From an uncultured archaeon (lineage in GTDB: Archaea; Asgardarchaeota; Lokiarchaeia; Sigyniarchaeales; SOKP01), in NCBI GenBank assembly GCA_964493715.1, contig CAZBPC010000053.1, positions 1-22,446 of the forward strand: a DNA stretch of 22,446 nucleotides, written 5' to 3'. Within the stretch, counting starts at the first letter, position 1. Each line of letters opens with the position of its first letter. The notes under the pieces are model-generated. The model was not told the DNA's origin, did no database searches, and saw only the letters and a program-made list of their open reading frames with translations. A program made the position numbers and the translations under genes. Shown one piece after another: positions 1-7,068 of the stretch.

Positions 1-622
1 GATGATTTTGGAGTTTTCTTAAAGCTTGAATCTGACAAGGAGTACCAACAACAGCAATATCTACAAAATTTTTGTTGATAGCATCTCCTACAAGTGAAAT
101 TGTTGGATTCTGTTGTGGTTTATATCCAGTACCCTTAAAAAGCTCCTCTTGAGTTTTAGCTAATGTGGGATGGGGTTGAAAGTATTCATCCTTTTCTGAA
201 ACGATTGCAGCATCAATTAAACCATTACCCATCGCTGCCCATAGTAAACCTGTCAATGGACCCACATTTGAAGGGAGTTTTTCTCTCGCTTCTTCACTTA
301 ACTTTACCGACACAATTTCGATATAATGTCCTAATATTCTTTCCGATTGTTGACCAAAAACCCATTTATCTAATAAGGAAATTGGGAAGCTGTCAGTTTC
401 TGTCTTAGGGCATAAATTATAACATAAACCAAAACCGTCACGACAGGTATTAGAATCCTCACAAGAACCATCTTCTATGGGGATTTCCTTTTCCAAATCA
501 AACTTTATATTCGAGCAAAATGCACCACAAGCTCCACAAAATACACACTTTCCTGTCTGAATTATCTCATCATGTAGCTCCTTCCAACCTTTTTCTACTT
601 TCTGAATGAACACCTTAATCAT
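1..622 (-). CDS. Coenzyme F420 hydrogenase/dehydrogenase beta-subunit family (FrhB/FpoF-like) protein with N-terminal ferredoxin domain; partial, runs off the left edge and is absent from the ORF track
   Basis: Manual translation from ATG 622 is open to base 1: MIKVFIQKVEKGWKELHDEIIQTGKCVFCGACGAFC...TCRDGFGLCYNLCPK...GPLTGLLWAAMGNGLIDAAIV...DIAVVGTPCQIQALRKLQ. It has a CxxCxxCxxxC motif and the FrhB-family VGTPCQ motif. GTG 613 is an alternative start. Confidence 0.85.
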   Translation of the reverse strand, partial: MIKVFIQKVEKGWKELHDEIIQTGKCVFCGACGAFCSNIKFDLEKEIPIEDGSCEDSNTCRDGFGLCYNLCPKTETDSFPISLLDKWVFGQQSERILGHYIEIVSVKLSEEAREKLPSNVGPLTGLLWAAMGNGLIDAAIVSEKDEYFQPHPTLAKTQEELFKGTGYKPQQNPTISLVGDAINKNFVDIAVVGTPCQIQALRKLQNH

Positions 623-1211
623 TCCCCTCCTGAAGATTTTTTAAGAACTCTAATCCTTCTTGCTTTCCAAGTTCAAATGCTTCTAGATTTATGTCCAATG
701 TCGAAGCTGGGACAAAAGATTTTATAGTTTCGATTGCCGATTCTTCCGAAAAGATTCCAGATAAAACTGTGAAGATCCCAAATAATATGGTATTACCAAA
801 TACAATATTGTTGAACTTTTCAACAGCTAACTTCTGAATGGGTACACCTAAAGTCTTTTTTATTTTTTTAGCAGCTCTAATTTTGCTAATTGTTGATGTA
901 TCCCAAATTAAAAAACCGGTTTTACCCTCTTTCACGAAATCTGGTTTTACATCGCTCGCAGCTTCTTCCGATAAAACTATTAAAAAATCATAAGGAGATA
1001 ATGCTTTGGGATAATCTATAACATCAATTTGTCTATCTAATTCAACAACTACTTCTGCCCAACATTTACCTCCCCTTGCGGCTGCCGAATAAGCTTCAGT
1101 TTGGGTTCCTGCTAGATTTTCATATAAGGAACTAGCAGTGATGATCATTTTGCTTAAAGTGATGACTCCTTGACCCCCATACCCACTTATTCTAATTTCA
1201 TATCTTACCAT
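615..1211 (-). CDS. korC: 2-oxoacid:ferredoxin oxidoreductase gamma subunit
   Basis: IRISGYGGQGVIT, QTEAYSAAARGG, IDYP, FGNTILFG and INLEAFELG motifs; operon context. Confidence 0.88.
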   Translation of the reverse strand: MVRYEIRISGYGGQGVITLSKMIITASSLYENLAGTQTEAYSAAARGGKCWAEVVVELDRQIDVIDYPKALSPYDFLIVLSEEAASDVKPDFVKEGKTGFLIWDTSTISKIRAAKKIKKTLGVPIQKLAVEKFNNIVFGNTILFGIFTVLSGIFSEESAIETIKSFVPASTLDINLEAFELGKQEGLEFLKNLQEGND

Positions 1212-1214
1212 GTC

Positions 1215-2162
1215 TTATTTATCACCCATAGCTATTTTCTGAATTTTAGCATACTCTTCAGAGTATTCAGGTTTATTTGGTTCATAACGGAATTCCCCAA
1301 TGATGTATTTATTGAATAATTCTTCTTCACTCATGAATTTTGCTTGATTTATTCTTACCGTATTTCTCTTAATCCAATCAATCATCTTGAATCCTTGATC
1401 CATTTTCTCTCCTTTAACTCCTGTATACTCTGCTCCTAAACTATTTAAGTTCTTTCTTCCGAAATAAGTGATGCAAGGGGTTATGATTTCAATTACAGAG
1501 GTACCTTTATGTTCTAACGCTCTTTTGAAATACTTCATGTAGGTTCTAGGATGAGCTACTGTAGTTCTCGCCACATATGTAGCTCCTGCTGCTAGAGCTA
1601 AATTAACCCCATCACTTCTATTTTCAAACATGCTATAAGGAGTAGTAGTGCTTTGAGCCCCATATAGCGTAGTAGGAGCACCTTGACCTCCAGTCATGGC
1701 ATAAATGCTATTGTTAAAGATTAACATCACACAATCCAAATTTCGCCTACAAAGATGGATAAAATGATTGCCTCCTATTCCTAAAGAATCACCATCTCCC
1801 GAAAAGATAATAGGCTTCATCCTAGGATTTGCCATCTTAATTCCTGTAGCTACAGCAGGAGCTCTCCCATGAAGTGCTAAAACTTTCTGAGATTTAAAAT
1901 GAACCAATAGAAGCATTTGACTGTAACATCCAATTCCAATTACAGTAGGAAAAAGCTTTGGATCTAAATGTTCATCTTCAAAAATTCTTGTGAAAAGTTG
2001 AGCAATGATTCCATATCCACAACCAGAGCAGATACACGTAAATGAAGGATATCTTCATTTACATCGTGTTGCGAAGTTGTTAAACATGCTCCCAGCATAT
2101 GAAAAGGGGACATATGGATGTTCAGGTTGCTCATTTTTAAGCATTCGTCCTATATCAGTCAT
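1215..2162 (-). CDS. korB: 2-oxoacid:ferredoxin oxidoreductase beta (TPP-binding) subunit, interrupted by an in-frame TGA at 2055-2057 (candidate 30-nt intron 2033-2062, or selenocysteine)
   Basis: The track ORF 1215-1916 has LHGRA, GDGD...GGNHFIH..RRN and NN.IYAMTGGQ but lacks the N-terminal cluster ligands. The same frame continues upstream through GIGC and CSGCGYG, then one TGA, to ATG 2162. That ATG overlaps the alpha-subunit stop (TAATG) and follows the RBS GAGGTG. Confidence 0.88.
2033..2062 (-). other. Candidate bulge-helix-bulge (EndA-type) mRNA intron in korB
   Basis: The mRNA strand reads GCA-A-CACG-ATG-TAAATGAAG-ATATC-CTTCATTTA-CGTG-TAT-C-TGC. Cutting after the 2nd nt of each 3-nt bulge removes 30 nt including the TGA and yields ...ATR-F-CSGCG in frame. 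Confidence 0.55.
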
Positions 2163-3337
2163 TATTTTGCCACCTCTCTTATAACTTTAAGAATATCATC
2201 TGGATGATGAAATTCACATACTTTAGGAATCTTTATTACGGGGGTATCGATTTTTGTCACTCTTTCTACTTGTTCTGCTATAACTCCAGTATAATTTAAT
2301 TCGGGTACAATTATCGCTTTAGCATCTTTAACTACTTCTTTCACTTGTTCATCTGGAAATGGCCAAACTGTTATTAACCTAAAAATGCCAACTTTAATAC
2401 CCTCACTTCTTGCGATATCTATTGCCCTATAGCTTGCCCTAACAGGTAATCCATAGGCAATAATAACGAATTCAGCATCATCCAATTTATATTTATCCGT
2501 AAGACAGATTTTATCTTTATTTTTATTTACTTTATCCATTATTGCTTCAATAAACTGCATTGGTTTTGGAGTTGGTAAGCCTTCATAGTTATGTGGTTGA
2601 TGTAAAAATAAACCGGGGCAATAATCCGTTCCCATTTGAGGAGGTTTGGGTATAACAATTTCTCCACTAATATCATCAACATACGTAAATTTCTTCACAT
2701 AATCTTCAGGGGCAGGTAATTCTCTATTAATAACTCTCTCTAATATTTCTTCCTTTGGAGGAATTTTAACAATCTCATGAAGATGTCCAAGATATGCATC
2801 AGAAAGAATGAAAATAGGGCATCTATAAGTCTCAGCAAAATTGAAAGCTGTAATTGTTAAGTCGAATAATTCTTGGCATGTCATTGGTGCCAAAGCTATT
2901 ACTTGAAATTCCCCATTTCCTGAAAATCTCACTAATCCTAAATCATTATGATGTGGTTCTGTAACAAATCCTGTTCCAGGACCGTTTCTTTGAACATCAC
3001 AAAACACAAACGGTATTTCTAAATTAGCTGCCATGGAAATTGTTTCTACCATTAATGATAAACCTGGTCCTGATGTTGCCGTCATAGCTTTTGCTCCTAC
3101 TAATGAAGCACCTATTACAGAATTTATAGAAGCTAATTCATCTTCCATTTGCATGCAAACACCTCCAACTTCAGGAAGTCTTTTGGCTAAATGTTCGATT
3201 ACTTCTGTACTTGGTGTTATAGGATATCCTCCAAAATAAGTTAGTCCCGCTGATAGTGCCCCTTCTGACATTGCTTCATTACCCATCATTAAATATCTTC
3301 CAGGTTCTAAAAATCGTTTATTTTTGTCACTTACCAT
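2162..3337 (-). CDS. korA: 2-oxoacid:ferredoxin oxidoreductase alpha subunit
   Basis: GNEA...GYPITPSTE, QMEDELAS, TATSGPGLSLM, QR.GP.TG and VWPFP motifs; RBS GGTGA 5 nt before ATG. Confidence 0.92.
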   Translation of the reverse strand: MVSDKNKRFLEPGRYLMMGNEAMSEGALSAGLTYFGGYPITPSTEVIEHLAKRLPEVGGVCMQMEDELASINSVIGASLVGAKAMTATSGPGLSLMVETISMAANLEIPFVFCDVQRNGPGTGFVTEPHHNDLGLVRFSGNGEFQVIALAPMTCQELFDLTITAFNFAETYRCPIFILSDAYLGHLHEIVKIPPKEEILERVINRELPAPEDYVKKFTYVDDISGEIVIPKPPQMGTDYCPGLFLHQPHNYEGLPTPKPMQFIEAIMDKVNKNKDKICLTDKYKLDDAEFVIIAYGLPVRASYRAIDIARSEGIKVGIFRLITVWPFPDEQVKEVVKDAKAIIVPELNYTGVIAEQVERVTKIDTPVIKIPKVCEFHHPDDILKVIREVAK

Positions 3338-3350
3338 TTATATCACCATT

Positions 3351-3641
3351 TCACGTTTTTGCTTTTTCATTTGTTGATTTTTCCTCTTCATCTAATATAT
3401 AAATACACCATTCTGGACAAGCATATTCACAACGACGACAACCGGTACAATAAGACCCCTTTCTTGCTTTAACTCGAGGTAAATATGCCACCCTCATGTT
3501 AAGTTCATCTCCAGGTTCTAAAATTCCAGTTGGGCATACAGCGATACAATTATAACACTGATCCCCACCACATCTATTTTTGTTAAGAAATAATGAAAAT
3601 TTCTTTTCTTTATTATCGACTAATTTTGGAATTTTTATCAA
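3351..3641 (-). CDS. korD: 2[4Fe-4S] ferredoxin, OFOR delta subunit
   Basis: CGGDQCYNCIAVCP and CTGCRRCEYACP motifs; first gene of the operon; start uncertain (TTG 3641 or ATT 3632). Confidence 0.85.
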   Translation of the reverse strand: MIKIPKLVDNKEKKFSLFLNKNRCGGDQCYNCIAVCPTGILEPGDELNMRVAYLPRVKARKGSYCTGCRRCEYACPEWCIYILDEEEKSTNEKAKT

Positions 3642-3836: not shown

Positions 3837-4577
3837 TTGACAAAGTTGATTTTTTTAGGCTGCTTATCAAAAACAAGATATCAAGAGACGTGTAATAATG
3901 CGATAAAAATTATTAAATTCTTGGATCCAACTTATAAAATTCTTGAAAATGCACCATGTTGCGGTGCTTTAGCTTATCATATTGCTAATGATAAAGAATT
4001 AAAAACTCACGTGGAATTTGTAAATAACTGGTTCAAATCAAATGATGTTTCCGAAATCGTAACGATTTGTGCGGGATGCTATAATTATTTAACCAAGTAT
4101 TACCCTCAATATTTAGGGAATGAGTTTAATGTTGATGTGAAGCATCTTCTCCAATTGGTAGCTAAACCAGAAAACCTCTCAAAATTGAATCTTAAAAACT
4201 CAGGTAAAGCATTGAAGGTCAGTTATCACGACGCTTGTCATTTGAGAAATGCAGTAGTTCCTGTTATAAATGAACCAAGAAAAATTCTCGAATCAATTCA
4301 AAATGTAGAACTTAAGGAATTGGATAATATTAAAACTAATAGTATTTGTTGTGGAGCAGGGGGAGGAGTTTATTCAACTTTTAAGGAAAATAGTGATCAT
4401 AACTCTATTTTGATTTTTGATCAATTGAAGCGTGGTAAGGCTTTATTAACCGCATGTCCATTTTGTTATACAGCATTAAATCGCGTAAGAGATGAAAATC
4501 AAATTAAAAAGCCAGTAATTAAATTTGAAGATTTTATTGTAAAAATTATAGAAGGAGTTGATCCTTTAGGTGACTGA
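3837..4577 (+). CDS. CCG-domain (Fe-S)-binding protein, LutA/GlpC/HdrB-like
   Basis: Two cysteine-rich CCG repeats: FLGC...CCG...CAGC and YHDAC...CCGAGGG...ACPFC. Confidence 0.85.
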   Translation: MTKLIFLGCLSKTRYQETCNNAIKIIKFLDPTYKILENAPCCGALAYHIANDKELKTHVEFVNNWFKSNDVSEIVTICAGCYNYLTKYYPQYLGNEFNVDVKHLLQLVAKPENLSKLNLKNSGKALKVSYHDACHLRNAVVPVINEPRKILESIQNVELKELDNIKTNSICCGAGGGVYSTFKENSDHNSILIFDQLKRGKALLTACPFCYTALNRVRDENQIKKPVIKFEDFIVKIIEGVDPLGD

Positions 4578-5868
4578 GGGAAAAGATCTTTTTGAAGAAG
4601 TTAAGAATAAAATAAAAACTCTCCAGACAGACGGGACATTAGAAAAACAATTTGGAGATTTTTGGAAACTTGCATGTACGATTAAAACAAGGCAACACGA
4701 TTTACAATATTTATATGACGATTCAAGTCGCGAATTTGTAGATAGATATCGTGACAACCTTATTGAAATGAGAGAAGATTTTGTAGATCACATGGATGAG
4801 TATGTAGAAAAATGTATAAATATAATGCGCAAAAAAAATTTCACTGTATTTTATGCAAAGACAAACGAAGAAGCTCAAAGAATTTTTATGGAGGAGTTAG
4901 GGGATAGCAAGATAATTTATAAATCAAAGTCTAATGAAGCGAAAGATATTGGAATCATGGATGCTTTAAAAAAAAATGATATCAAAATTAAAGAAACCGA
5001 TTTAGGTGATGTACTTGTTCAATTGTTTGAATATGAATTACCAAGCTTCCAAGTTGGACCAGGTATTCATTTTACAGAAGAAGAAATCGCAAGCAAGATC
5101 AAGGAAGTATATAATGTTGAACTTGAACCTAAAGCAAGTGCAATAGTAGAATTCTTTAGAAATACCTACAGGAAAGAATTACTTAATGATGTGAAAATCT
5201 CTTTGACATCTGCGAACGCCATATCTGCTGAAGATGGTACGATAGTTTTAGGCGAAAATGAAGGTAATATCAGCCTTATTACAAGAGCAACTGATAAACA
5301 CATAGTTGTATGTGGTATTACTAAAATTGTTCCTACAATATTGGATGCAGTCTTGGTGACAAAATTACAGTCTAGAATTAATAATGTCTCATATAATTAT
5401 ATTAGTCTCATTTCAGGACCATCAAACACTTCTGACATTCAAGGTACTAGCATCCAAGGTATGTATGGCGCAAAAGAGGTAGTTGTTATCCTGGTTGATG
5501 ATTGGAGGTCAAAAGCAGTGAAAGAGAATTTAATCTATAAAGAATTCTTAAAATGTATTGGATGTAAATCTTGTATTTTCCCTTGTACAGCATCACGGGC
5601 TTTTGGAAATATTTATGCCTCAAAATATGGTTTAGGTGCAACTGCAATCATTAGAGACTATATACACAATGGAATTGAAGCTGCTGTGAAAGATGGTCTA
5701 TTCTTTTGTACTGGATGCGAAAATTGTTACCATTGGTGTCCAGTTTCAATAAATTGTGGTGAAATTCTAAGAGAAATGAAAAGAGAAGCTACTGAAAAAG
5801 GTTTAGCCCCTCCATCTTTAGAGAAATATAAAGATAAAATATTCAGGGAAAAAAATCCATTTATCTGA
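4570..5868 (+). CDS. LUD-domain Fe-S protein, LutB/LldF-like (lactate utilization protein B family)
   Basis: KSKS, ETDLGD, ENEGNI, GITKIVP, ISGPSNTSDI and GAKEVVVILVD motifs plus two C-terminal CxxCxxCxxxC motifs; overlaps the upstream CCG gene. Confidence 0.85.
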   Translation: MTEGKDLFEEVKNKIKTLQTDGTLEKQFGDFWKLACTIKTRQHDLQYLYDDSSREFVDRYRDNLIEMREDFVDHMDEYVEKCINIMRKKNFTVFYAKTNEEAQRIFMEELGDSKIIYKSKSNEAKDIGIMDALKKNDIKIKETDLGDVLVQLFEYELPSFQVGPGIHFTEEEIASKIKEVYNVELEPKASAIVEFFRNTYRKELLNDVKISLTSANAISAEDGTIVLGENEGNISLITRATDKHIVVCGITKIVPTILDAVLVTKLQSRINNVSYNYISLISGPSNTSDIQGTSIQGMYGAKEVVVILVDDWRSKAVKENLIYKEFLKCIGCKSCIFPCTASRAFGNIYASKYGLGATAIIRDYIHNGIEAAVKDGLFFCTGCENCYHWCPVSINCGEILREMKREATEKGLAPPSLEKYKDKIFREKNPFI

Positions 5869-5880
5869 ATAAAATTTCAA

Positions 5881-7068
5881 TTATTTACAATGCATGTACT
5901 GGAATGGAGCTGCTGTGTTTCTCCATATTGCTAAATCATCAAATCCTAATTTCTCAGCTTGAGTTTGTTGCCCATTTAAAGTTTTTCTCATTTTTAACCA
6001 TAGAATTTCTGCAAGTTCTTCTATGGTTTTTTCACCTTTAATAATTCGACTTGCATCTACATCAATGTTTTCAGCCATCCAATTACAGGTTTTTGGATTA
6101 CCACACAATTTTATTACTGGAGCAATAGGATTTCCACAAGGACTCCCTCTCCCCGTTGTCATGAGAATCACTTGTGCGCCAGCTGCTGCTAATCCTGTCA
6201 TGGATTCAATATCAAGCCCAGGTTCTAACATTAACCAAAGTCCTTTTGTCTTTGGTGGTTCGGAATAATCAAGAATTCCTTGGATTGGAGATTTTCCAGA
6301 TTTTGCAATGTTTCCTAATGACTTTTCTTCTATAGTTGAGAGACCACCTTCAATGTTTCCTGGAGTTGGTTGTACTCCTAAAAAATCAATACCAAGACCT
6401 TTTAGATTTTCTATAAATCCCGTGATTGTGTTATGAATTTTTTGCGCCACATTTTCATTTATAGCTCTTTCAATAAGTAGATGTTCTGTTCCTATCCATT
6501 CTGTAAATTCCGGTAAAATAGAAGTCCCTCCTAATTTAACAACTCTATCAGATATTATCCCAACAGCAGGATTCGCTGAAATTCCCGATATTGAATCAGA
6601 ACCACCACATTCTAAACCTAAAACTAAATTAGAAAAATCAAACGGTTCTTTTTTTAATTCATTCGCTTCTTCTCTCATCTGATTACCAATCTTTAAACCG
6701 TACTCAATTGCAGCAGTGGAACCCCCTTTTATATCTTGTACATTAAAAAATTCAACTGGCTTTTTTGTTCGCTTAACATTTTTTGCTAATACCCCACTTT
6801 TTAAATTTTCACATCCTAAACCTATTACGACAACACCATATATATTTGGATTACTTCCTAATCCAACTAATGTACGAAATGTATTACTATAATCTGGTCC
6901 AAATTGTCCGCAACCCAAGGGGTGTTTAATTGCTACAGCATCATCCAATTTATTAGCAATTTGTTCAGCAATGTGATTTACGCATACAACGGAAGGAATG
7001 ATGGCTATTTTATTTCTTATTCCGACCTTGCTATTTGGTCTTTCATATCCCATGAATTCTTCATTCAT
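5881..7068 (-). CDS. UxaA-family dehydratase/lyase large subunit (altronate/galactarate dehydratase or SuyB-like)
   Basis: GYERP...VGIRN, H..GC, GLGCE, LECGGSD, GNIEGGLSTIEEKSLG and TTGRG motifs. Confidence 0.9.
   Translation of the reverse strand: MNEEFMGYERPNSKVGIRNKIAIIPSVVCVNHIAEQIANKLDDAVAIKHPLGCGQFGPDYSNTFRTLVGLGSNPNIYGVVVIGLGCENLKSGVLAKNVKRTKKPVEFFNVQDIKGGSTAAIEYGLKIGNQMREEANELKKEPFDFSNLVLGLECGGSDSISGISANPAVGIISDRVVKLGGTSILPEFTEWIGTEHLLIERAINENVAQKIHNTITGFIENLKGLGIDFLGVQPTPGNIEGGLSTIEEKSLGNIAKSGKSPIQGILDYSEPPKTKGLWLMLEPGLDIESMTGLAAAGAQVILMTTGRGSPCGNPIAPVIKLCGNPKTCNWMAENIDVDASRIIKGEKTIEELAEILWLKMRKTLNGQQTQAEKLGFDDLAIWRNTAAPFQYMHCK

Follow-up and report, generated by a model that had tools for sequence, protein, structure and literature searches.

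The korB locus and its in-frame stop

The 22,446-nucleotide (nt) stretch of DNA analysed here (the window; contig CAZBPC010000053.1 of assembly GCA_964493715.1) carries on its minus strand, at 615–3641, a four-gene operon for a 2-oxoacid:ferredoxin oxidoreductase (OFOR), whose β-subunit gene, korB, is interrupted by a stop codon set in a short hairpin – an interruption that is very probably a 30-nt intron of the bulge–helix–bulge (BHB) type, spliced out of the mRNA by the endonuclease EndA and the ligase RtcB. The source genome, referred to below as G000, is a metagenome-assembled genome (MAG) of 160 contigs, 3.68 Mb and 31% G+C. An earlier note on this DNA took the organism for a probable Asgard archaeon, in agreement with the names Promethearchaeota and Promethearchaeia that its relatives bear in public records.

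The identity of korB as the OFOR β-subunit gene is indicated by a thiamine pyrophosphate (TPP)-binding C-terminal domain, by an N-terminal CxxC cluster motif and by its place in an operon with the α, γ and δ subunits; the enzyme may act on 2-oxoglutarate, pyruvate or another 2-oxoacid. Its start is coupled to the preceding gene, the korA stop TAA overlapping the korB ATG at 2162 as TAATG, with the stretch GAGAGGTGG upstream. The frame that begins there comprises 316 codons and contains a single stop, the TGA at 2057–2055 (codon 36), which sits in the 5′ arm of a perfect inverted repeat, GTAAATGAAG-ATATC-CTTCATTTAC (2062–2038); no in-frame ATG, GTG or TTG lies between this TGA and the CSGCG motif from which translation could be rescued. 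The start, the ribosome-binding site, the stop at codon 36, the missing rescue start and the inverted repeat are all found where the earlier note had placed them.

The gene is otherwise in good order. No second lesion was found in korB or in the three other genes of the operon, and the dN/dS of korB is about 0.06 (against the genomes G022, G001 and G006). The changes on the G000 branch, along which the insertion may have arisen early or late, number 43 synonymous and 9 non-synonymous. The host gene is thus under purifying selection despite its interruption.

A 30-nt insert delimited by orthologues

When 41 genomes, G000 among them, were searched in all six frames, korB turned up in 29 at E ≤ 1e-40. 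Among the 32 places listed, an internal stop occurs in G000 only; all 23 translated orthologues read without a stop and show xFC/LCxGCG wherever the region is covered. Eighteen of these 23 loci could be compared at the DNA level, the remaining five (L008, L024, L025, L027 and L028) being left out as their matches do not start from codon 1; the translations of these five also read through without the insert. Against all 18 aligned orthologues, the window has exactly 30 extra nucleotides, which split a Phe codon into T and TC. This is the clean ten-codon gap that the earlier note had predicted, and its further prediction – a junction codon T|TC that would give ATRFCSGCG and a protein of 305 amino acids (aa) – agrees just as closely with the orthologues, which are 305–306 aa long and read ATRFCSGCG or close variants of it, the closest species having NNFATRFCSGCGYG at the junction.

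The possibility of an assembly error, which the note had wished to see checked, was addressed with contigs from public sequencing runs: X1 (perhaps the source sample), X2 and X3 (other salt-marsh samples) and X6 (a 2023 sediment study). Contigs from all four runs span 2033–2062 with no gaps, and three of these contigs show no other letters, the X6 contig showing four. The insert is therefore not an artefact of assembly. No indel or joint that would betray an intron-less allele in the population was reported in the contigs of these four runs; a relative's short contig (record 8 of X1, with 9 of 105 letters different) stops at 2058 and is uninformative on the allele.

A bulge–helix–bulge fold with matching predicted cut sites

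Read as RNA, the insert and its flanks can be laid out 5′ to 3′ as GCAA / CACG / AUG / UAAAUGAAG-AUAUC-CUUCAUUUA / CGUG / UAU / CUGC. This arrangement is a relaxed BHB motif, in which a central helix of four Watson–Crick pairs stands between two 3-nt bulges, flanked by a 9-bp inner stem and by an outer helix with three of its four pairs formed. Archaeal EndA cuts each bulge between residues two and three, according to the cited part of PMC2738675; applied to the korB motif, this rule removes exactly 2062–2033, that is, the boundaries defined by the orthologues.

The mRNA strand of 2095–2010 folds at −27.6 kcal/mol (z = −4.06), a value that none of 200 shuffled sequences matched; the opposite strand reaches −20.1 kcal/mol (z = −3.18). 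Under the scan criteria used, BHB hairpins with a 9-bp stem and a 5-nt loop number only 22 in G000, both strands taken together.

Probable sister introns in other protein genes

The korB insert does not stand alone. The earlier note had suggested scanning the genome for other BHB hairpins that carry a stop or shift the frame, and seven more have come to light and been verified against orthologues. G000 thus holds at least seven further inserts of 29–31 nt and, with korB, at least eight introns in seven protein genes. Apart from the one in RtcB, these sister introns were found by scanning for BHB hairpins that, once taken out, give back a long reading frame, and were then checked against orthologues. 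Each of the eight has intron-less orthologues, and seven are also found in other species at the identical site, their host genes being otherwise intact; in all eight, the cut sites given by the BHB rule coincide with the orthologue-defined boundaries.

The introns resemble each other closely in build. Six of the eight, korB included, consist of one nucleotide, a 9-bp stem closed by a 5-nt loop, and then four and two nucleotides (1 + 9 + 5 + 9 + 4 + 2 = 30). In all eight, the four exon bases that pair with the intron are followed by A-T or A-C as the last two letters of the 5′ exon, and the 3′ bulge begins with A in seven – shared features that may reflect a preference of the insertion site or of the enzyme. 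They are not copies of one sequence, as the korB 30-mer is unique within G000 at up to three mismatches and the 23-nt hairpin pattern, searched at up to two mismatches in 41 genomes of the genus, gave chance-level matches only, with counts close to those of the reversed control.

An unexpected host is the gene for RtcB itself. Its Pfam match comes in two pieces in different frames (model positions 1–47 and 48–426), separated by a frameshifting insert of 29 nt that also contains a stop and lies between GGVGY and DINCGVRL (G000:C2:12136-12164, minus strand, locus L143). The insert forms a clean BHB, in which the central helix is UUGG:CCAA, the bulges read AUA and AGA, and the stem has 9 bp. Among the 40 genomes of the genus with a match, the gene is split only in G000 and G001, at the same place, and the two inserts differ at one of 29 positions, in a bulge; exon 2 has meanwhile accumulated a synonymous divergence (pS) of 0.31, with a dN/dS of 0.12. 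RtcB, like leucyl-tRNA synthetase (LeuRS), is represented in G000 by a single locus. Because the insert shifts the frame, has stayed nearly unchanged in two species and interrupts a single-locus gene under purifying selection, it must be removed or bypassed during expression.

The LeuRS intron (G000:C44:26027-26056, plus strand, locus L142/L144) is 30 nt long, contains TAA and lies between PMGYD and SFGLPAEN. Stops inside the LeuRS match occur in eight genomes of the genus, in six of which the sequence of the insert was checked. The intron also extends to at least two other genera of the same family – by sequence in G131 and by stops and extra match length in G075, G116 and G058. From the three other families of the order, 16 genomes gave a match, and all of them lack it. 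Where complete, the host open reading frames (ORFs) are open over 941–1005 aa; the G000 copy runs off the end of its contig. A LeuRS N-terminal match in G009 (G009:C316:6337-6918, locus L148) contains three stops, one TGA and two TAG, and is about 30 nt longer than that of other intron-bearers, which together suggest a second insert there.

A paralogue of elongation factor 2 (EF-2) has two mini-introns about 130 nt apart (G000:C76, about 5211–5403, minus strand, locus L174/L178). One, of 30 nt with TAA, lies between MTDSD and EEEQARGITI (G000:C76:5211-5240); its site is occupied in G000, G015 and G023, and in G046 as judged by a stop and match length only, whereas the nearest species, namely G001, G006 and G022, lack it. 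Across species, its stems are nearly identical and its loops differ (AAUUA, ACUUA and GUCUC). The other, a frameshifting insert of 31 nt between AHID and HGKTT, forms a relaxed BHB with an A·G mismatch in the central helix.

The remaining three verified introns are in two thiolase-like genes and a gene for a CoxE-like von Willebrand factor A (VWA) protein. The intron of thiolase-like gene A (C28:23007-23036) is present in G000 and G022, two of the 25 genomes with a match, and the two copies differ in the loop only. That of the CoxE-like gene (C28:34412-34441) was checked by sequence in G000 against the intron-less G045; in G054 and G018 it is indicated by match length and stops only, the sequence pattern having caught just G000 and G045. 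The intron of thiolase-like gene B (C145:299-328) occurs in G000, G049 and G042, three of 25 genomes with a match; here the sequence pattern caught four of five loci, and the intron-less status of the one it missed (L212, in G023) comes from the match search. At C41:6286-6314 (29 nt), C38:28074-28097 and C113:3396-3426 lie more BHB hairpins that, if excised, would leave fused reading frames; these are candidates outside the count of eight.

The splicing machinery of the host

The enzymes that such introns would need are encoded in G000. Two EndA paralogues (tRNA_int_endo family) of about 206 aa score 102 and 68 bits, against a Pfam cut-off of 27. The copy on contig C5 (C5:37730-38353) carries Tyr, His and Lys at the expected places and the copy on C58 (C58:18437-19054) is without the His, so that, going by the usual roles of these residues, the former fits a catalytic subunit and the latter a structural β subunit. 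The pair would fit the (αβ)2 type of EndA that PMC5829648, in the part cited, describes for Asgard archaea together with an L1 loop linked to broad substrate specificity, the loop being taken from that paper. RtcB is also encoded (484 bits in the Pfam search).

ARAGORN finds 29 tRNA genes in G000, of which 12 have introns of 11–39 nt, several at non-canonical positions. At least one of these introns, read by eye, is laid out like that of korB: exon CAGC, bulge, hairpin, GCUG, bulge. As ARAGORN finds only 29 genes, it has probably missed many intron-rich ones.

Feature coordinates and neighbouring genes

The positions of the operon genes, the korB exons and the elements of the predicted fold are collected in Table 1. 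Farther along the window, at 3837–7068, the neighbouring genes seem to encode Cys-rich and iron–sulphur proteins: they comprise an ORF at 3837–4577, a 432-aa ORF with Fe–S motifs at 4570–5868 and, on the minus strand, an ORF of 395 aa at 5881–7068.

Table 1. Features of the OFOR operon and of the predicted korB intron, in window coordinates.
Feature	Positions	Strand	Basis
OFOR δ subunit (2×[4Fe-4S] ferredoxin), first gene of the operon	3351–3641	minus	ORF and Fer4 family matches
OFOR α subunit (korA)	2162–3337	minus	POR_N 1.8e-54, PFOR_II 6.2e-20
OFOR β subunit (korB)	1215–2162	minus	TPP_enzyme_C 6.7e-30
OFOR γ subunit	615–1211	minus	POR family 1.8e-23
korB exon 1: 33 codons and base T of the Phe junction codon	2063–2162	minus	orthologue alignment
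Putative BHB mini-intron, 30 nt, mRNA sense GTAAATGAAGATATCCTTCATTTACGTGTA, with in-frame TGA at 2057–2055	2033–2062	minus	orthologue alignment, genome search, run contigs
korB exon 2: remaining TC of the Phe codon, then the CSGCG cluster motif, the TPP-binding domain and the stop	1215–2032	minus	TPP_enzyme_C 6.7e-30
Central BHB helix, 5′ strand (exon, CACG), pairing with CGUG at 2038–2035	2065–2068	minus	sequence, scan row
5′ bulge AUG, predicted cut 2063/2062	2062–2064	minus	cut rule PMC2738675; boundary from orthologue alignment
Intron hairpin: 9-bp stem UAAAUGAAG/CUUCAUUUA, 5-nt loop AUAUC	2039–2061	minus	fold, scan
Central BHB helix, 3′ strand (intron, CGUG)	2035–2038	minus	sequence, scan
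3′ bulge UAU, predicted cut 2033/2032	2032–2034	minus	sequence; boundary from orthologue alignment
Outer helix, 3′ strand (CUGC), paired to the GCAA of 2072–2069 (A·C mismatch beside the bulge, then 3 bp)	2028–2031	minus	sequence, fold, scan

Proposed mechanism

The reading that best accounts for these observations, and very likely the correct one, is that the korB insert is a genuine archaeal BHB mRNA intron, spliced by EndA and RtcB; the interpretation put forward in the earlier note is thereby supported, all three of its predictions that could be put to the test here having held. In the operon transcript, exon CACG would pair with intron CGUG to form a 4-bp central helix between the bulges AUG and UAU, flanked by a weak exon–exon helix and by the 9-bp intron hairpin. 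The two-subunit EndA of the host would then cut after the second nucleotide of each bulge, and RtcB would join the exons. Excision would drop the TGA and form the Phe codon T|TC, giving a KorB of 305 aa with ATRFCSGCG. The predicted spliced products include a KorB tryptic peptide beginning FCSGCGYGIIAQLFTR and the junctions PMGYDSFGLPAEN in LeuRS and GGVGYDINCGVR in RtcB.

More broadly, the korB intron would be one of a family of 29–31-nt mini-introns that entered many protein genes in the Loki-type Asgard lineage of the host. That this lineage (family f1) holds near-uniform BHB mini-introns of about 30 nt, gained repeatedly in genes for LeuRS, an EF-2 paralogue (twice), thiolase-like proteins, an OFOR subunit and RtcB, seems likely, and their patchy distribution among species suggests that gain and loss are ongoing.

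Geometry controls and covariation

Two kinds of control bear on the BHB geometry of the family as a whole. When ORF-restoring hairpins with stems of at least 9 bp were counted, the true BHB geometry gave 10 and the mirror geometry 3; in the class with a 9-bp stem, a 5-nt loop and a total of 30 nt, the numbers were 6 and 0. In the LeuRS intron, 96.6% of 119 cells are paired, against 41–56% in slid registers, and in the thiolase-B intron all 45 of 45 cells are paired.

The eight introns are a lower bound and no census, because they were drawn from the long-stem class plus chance finds. Loose genome-wide BHB scans of G000 yield thousands of chance hits, mostly at gene junctions; a paralogue-based junction filter brought out LeuRS and little else, and a scan for split ORFs (2234 pairs) was too noisy.

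Points against splicing and alternative explanations

Several observations weigh against the splicing interpretation. The korB motif itself is imperfect: an A·C mismatch adjoins the 3′ bulge, which makes the motif a relaxed one, and that bulge reads UAU whereas the 3′ bulge of the other seven introns starts with A. The minimum-free-energy fold is a 12-bp hairpin with a 5 × 5 internal loop and corresponds to neither BHB register, so that the BHB would be an alternative conformer rather than the predicted ground state. A rival register satisfies the motif more strictly (ACAC:GUGU, bulges GAU and AUC, a 10-bp stem), and would take out 32 nt and break the frame; of the two registers, both weighed in the earlier note, the 30-nt one is favoured, since the orthologues require 30 nt and the sister introns share its 1 + 9 + 5 + 9 + 4 + 2 build. 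The controls also have their reverse side. Under loose criteria, ORF-restoring hits are as frequent in mirror geometry (589) as in true geometry (601), without enrichment, and the BHB geometry signal is confined to the long-stem class. No pair in the LeuRS intron is changed on both sides, and shuffles are not exceeded; in the thiolase-B intron, two pairs have both partners changed, and one of these pairs belongs to the exon–intron helix, but with only three sequences, 109 of 500 shuffles reach its values and the covariation is not significant. The korB insert has been seen in one species only and, as the other genomes of the genus with a match show no stop, conservation offers no argument for this insert in particular, which may be of recent date. 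Finally, we infer excision at the RNA level from DNA sequence, and with it the cleavage, ligation and translation of spliced korB mRNA; among the 22 public runs listed, none is on record as RNA.

Some of these points would suit the idea that korB is a recently inactivated pseudogene, carrying a 30-bp palindromic insertion that is never removed – a product of replication or template switching, or a failed intron gain – in a cell where other OFOR paralogues suffice. The restriction of the insertion to G000, the relaxed motif with its competing 32-nt register and the indirect case for splicing at the RNA level all accord with this idea, as does the presence in G000 of four other OFOR β paralogues (26–36% identity), because of which the loss of korB might be tolerated. 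A palindrome of that origin is, however, at odds with insertion boundaries that match the BHB cut sites exactly and with the build that the korB insert shares with introns kept across species in the single-locus LeuRS and RtcB genes. Nor do the absence of a second lesion in the operon, the 43 synonymous against 9 non-synonymous changes on the G000 branch, or the recurrence of the same allele, free of indels, in all four runs (that of the 2023 study among them) speak of a decaying gene. Given the exact BHB register, the family build and the intact operon, inactivation is the less likely reading for korB, and we consider it unlikely.

Alternatively, the insert might stay in the mRNA and be hopped over by the ribosome, in a case of programmed translational bypassing. 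Bypass elements, such as phage T4 gene 60 and the yeast-mitochondrial ‘byp’ elements, are flanked by matching take-off and landing codons on either side of the gap. An insert of about 30 nt that contains a hairpin and brings a stop codon shortly behind the take-off site would suit such a mechanism, which would also tolerate inserts of 29 and 31 nt, but no matching codons were seen by eye in korB (where the codon is split), LeuRS (GAC vs AAA) or EF-2 (GAT vs AAA). Moreover, every verified insert fits a BHB register with a 4-nt intron segment complementary to the upstream exon, which bypassing would not need, and which leaves this explanation highly improbable.

A barely credible reading is that the TGA is read through or decoded as selenocysteine, yielding a KorB with a 10-residue insertion, including U, ahead of the cluster-binding CxxC. 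G000 does have a tRNA-SeC with the anticodon TCA, from which it follows that the organism probably makes selenoproteins, and the UGA does lie in a hairpin. Yet the ten codons are absent from all orthologues translated, the insertion would displace the conserved F/W-C-x-G-C-G motif, and no Rfam family, SECIS included, reaches its gathering score in the window. In the sister inserts the stop is TAA or TAG, or else the frame is shifted, so that the intron family could not be explained in this way.

That the hairpin is an assembly or amplification artefact, as might be imagined for a MAG of 160 contigs and given that inverted-repeat chimeras arise in some library types, has a practically negligible chance of being right, with independently assembled contigs from four of four runs crossing the site without a gap and analogous inserts at identical sites in the MAGs of other species.

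Relation to known systems

To our knowledge, the crenarchaeal cbf5 gene has for two decades been essentially the sole textbook example of an archaeal protein gene with an endonuclease-type intron. Full-text literature searches, with subscription journals and supplements outside their scope, returned no account of an Asgard archaeon with BHB introns in its protein-coding genes. The cbf5 intron of Crenarchaeota (Aeropyrum, Sulfolobus, Desulfurococcales) is described, in the part of PMC2738675 cited here, as short and BHB-like and as cut by a hetero-oligomeric EndA. Like the korB insert, it interrupts a protein gene, often has a relaxed motif and has been gained and lost among relatives (PMC2738675, same part). 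The two cases differ in reach: cbf5 is a single gene in the TACK lineage, verified by cDNA, whereas the present introns are known from DNA alone and occupy at least seven genes in the Asgard phylum. Unlike cbf5, the Asgard inserts mostly have a uniform 30-nt build, and among the genes that they occupy are those for an enzyme of central metabolism and for the ligase RtcB.

Asgard archaea are also known for abundant tRNA introns with heavy, repeated gains (bioRxiv 10.64898/2026.10.13.758758; PMC11291895, both as cited in part). These BHB introns resemble the korB insert in that they come from the same group of organisms, measure 11–39 nt in G000 and share the exon/intron layout of the central helix; the same EndA and RtcB would be expected to act on both. 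They differ in residing in tRNA genes, where the cloverleaf provides the context, and introns in protein genes go unmentioned in the cited parts of the two sources (bioRxiv 10.64898/2026.10.13.758758; PMC11291895). That EndA can act on mRNA, as proposed for korB, has a parallel in Haloferax volcanii, in which an mRNA, besides tRNA and rRNA, is cut by the splicing endonuclease; this is, going by the portion of PMC7714728 cited, one isolated case, and the euryarchaeon concerned has an enzyme of the homodimeric type. We accordingly rate the mechanism as already known, and the phylum, the many genes, the uniform build of the mini-introns and the ligase gene as host as what is new.

A further parallel comes from eukaryotes. 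In HAC1/XBP1 splicing, a non-spliceosomal endonuclease frees the mature mRNA of an intron that is very short, measuring 26 nt in XBP1, and in animals RtcB joins the exons. As with the mini-introns, a short mRNA intron is removed and its removal changes or restores the frame. The differences are considerable, the endonuclease being IRE1 rather than EndA/TSEN, its substrate a set of paired stem-loops rather than a BHB, and its action part of stress regulation; no homology of the introns is implied.

Implications

For annotation, the mini-introns would mean that genes of this kind in Asgard MAGs will be mis-called as pseudogenes or split ORFs, with distorted metabolic reconstructions as a result. 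They also offer a natural system for the study of intron gain, in which a patchy spread is combined with a uniform 30-nt build and a 4-nt segment that is always complementary to the upstream exon. The intron in the ligase gene would close a self-referential loop, as the mRNA for RtcB would need RtcB as its ligase.

The point for the biology of the organism is that, in a relative of the eukaryotic ancestor, mRNA splicing by the tRNA machinery would belong to normal gene expression. If this is true, core genes of translation and metabolism would need the tRNA-splicing machinery in order to be expressed, and mRNA splicing would be routine in the closest prokaryotic relatives of eukaryotes – an RtcB-dependent precedent for splicing of the HAC1/XBP1 type.

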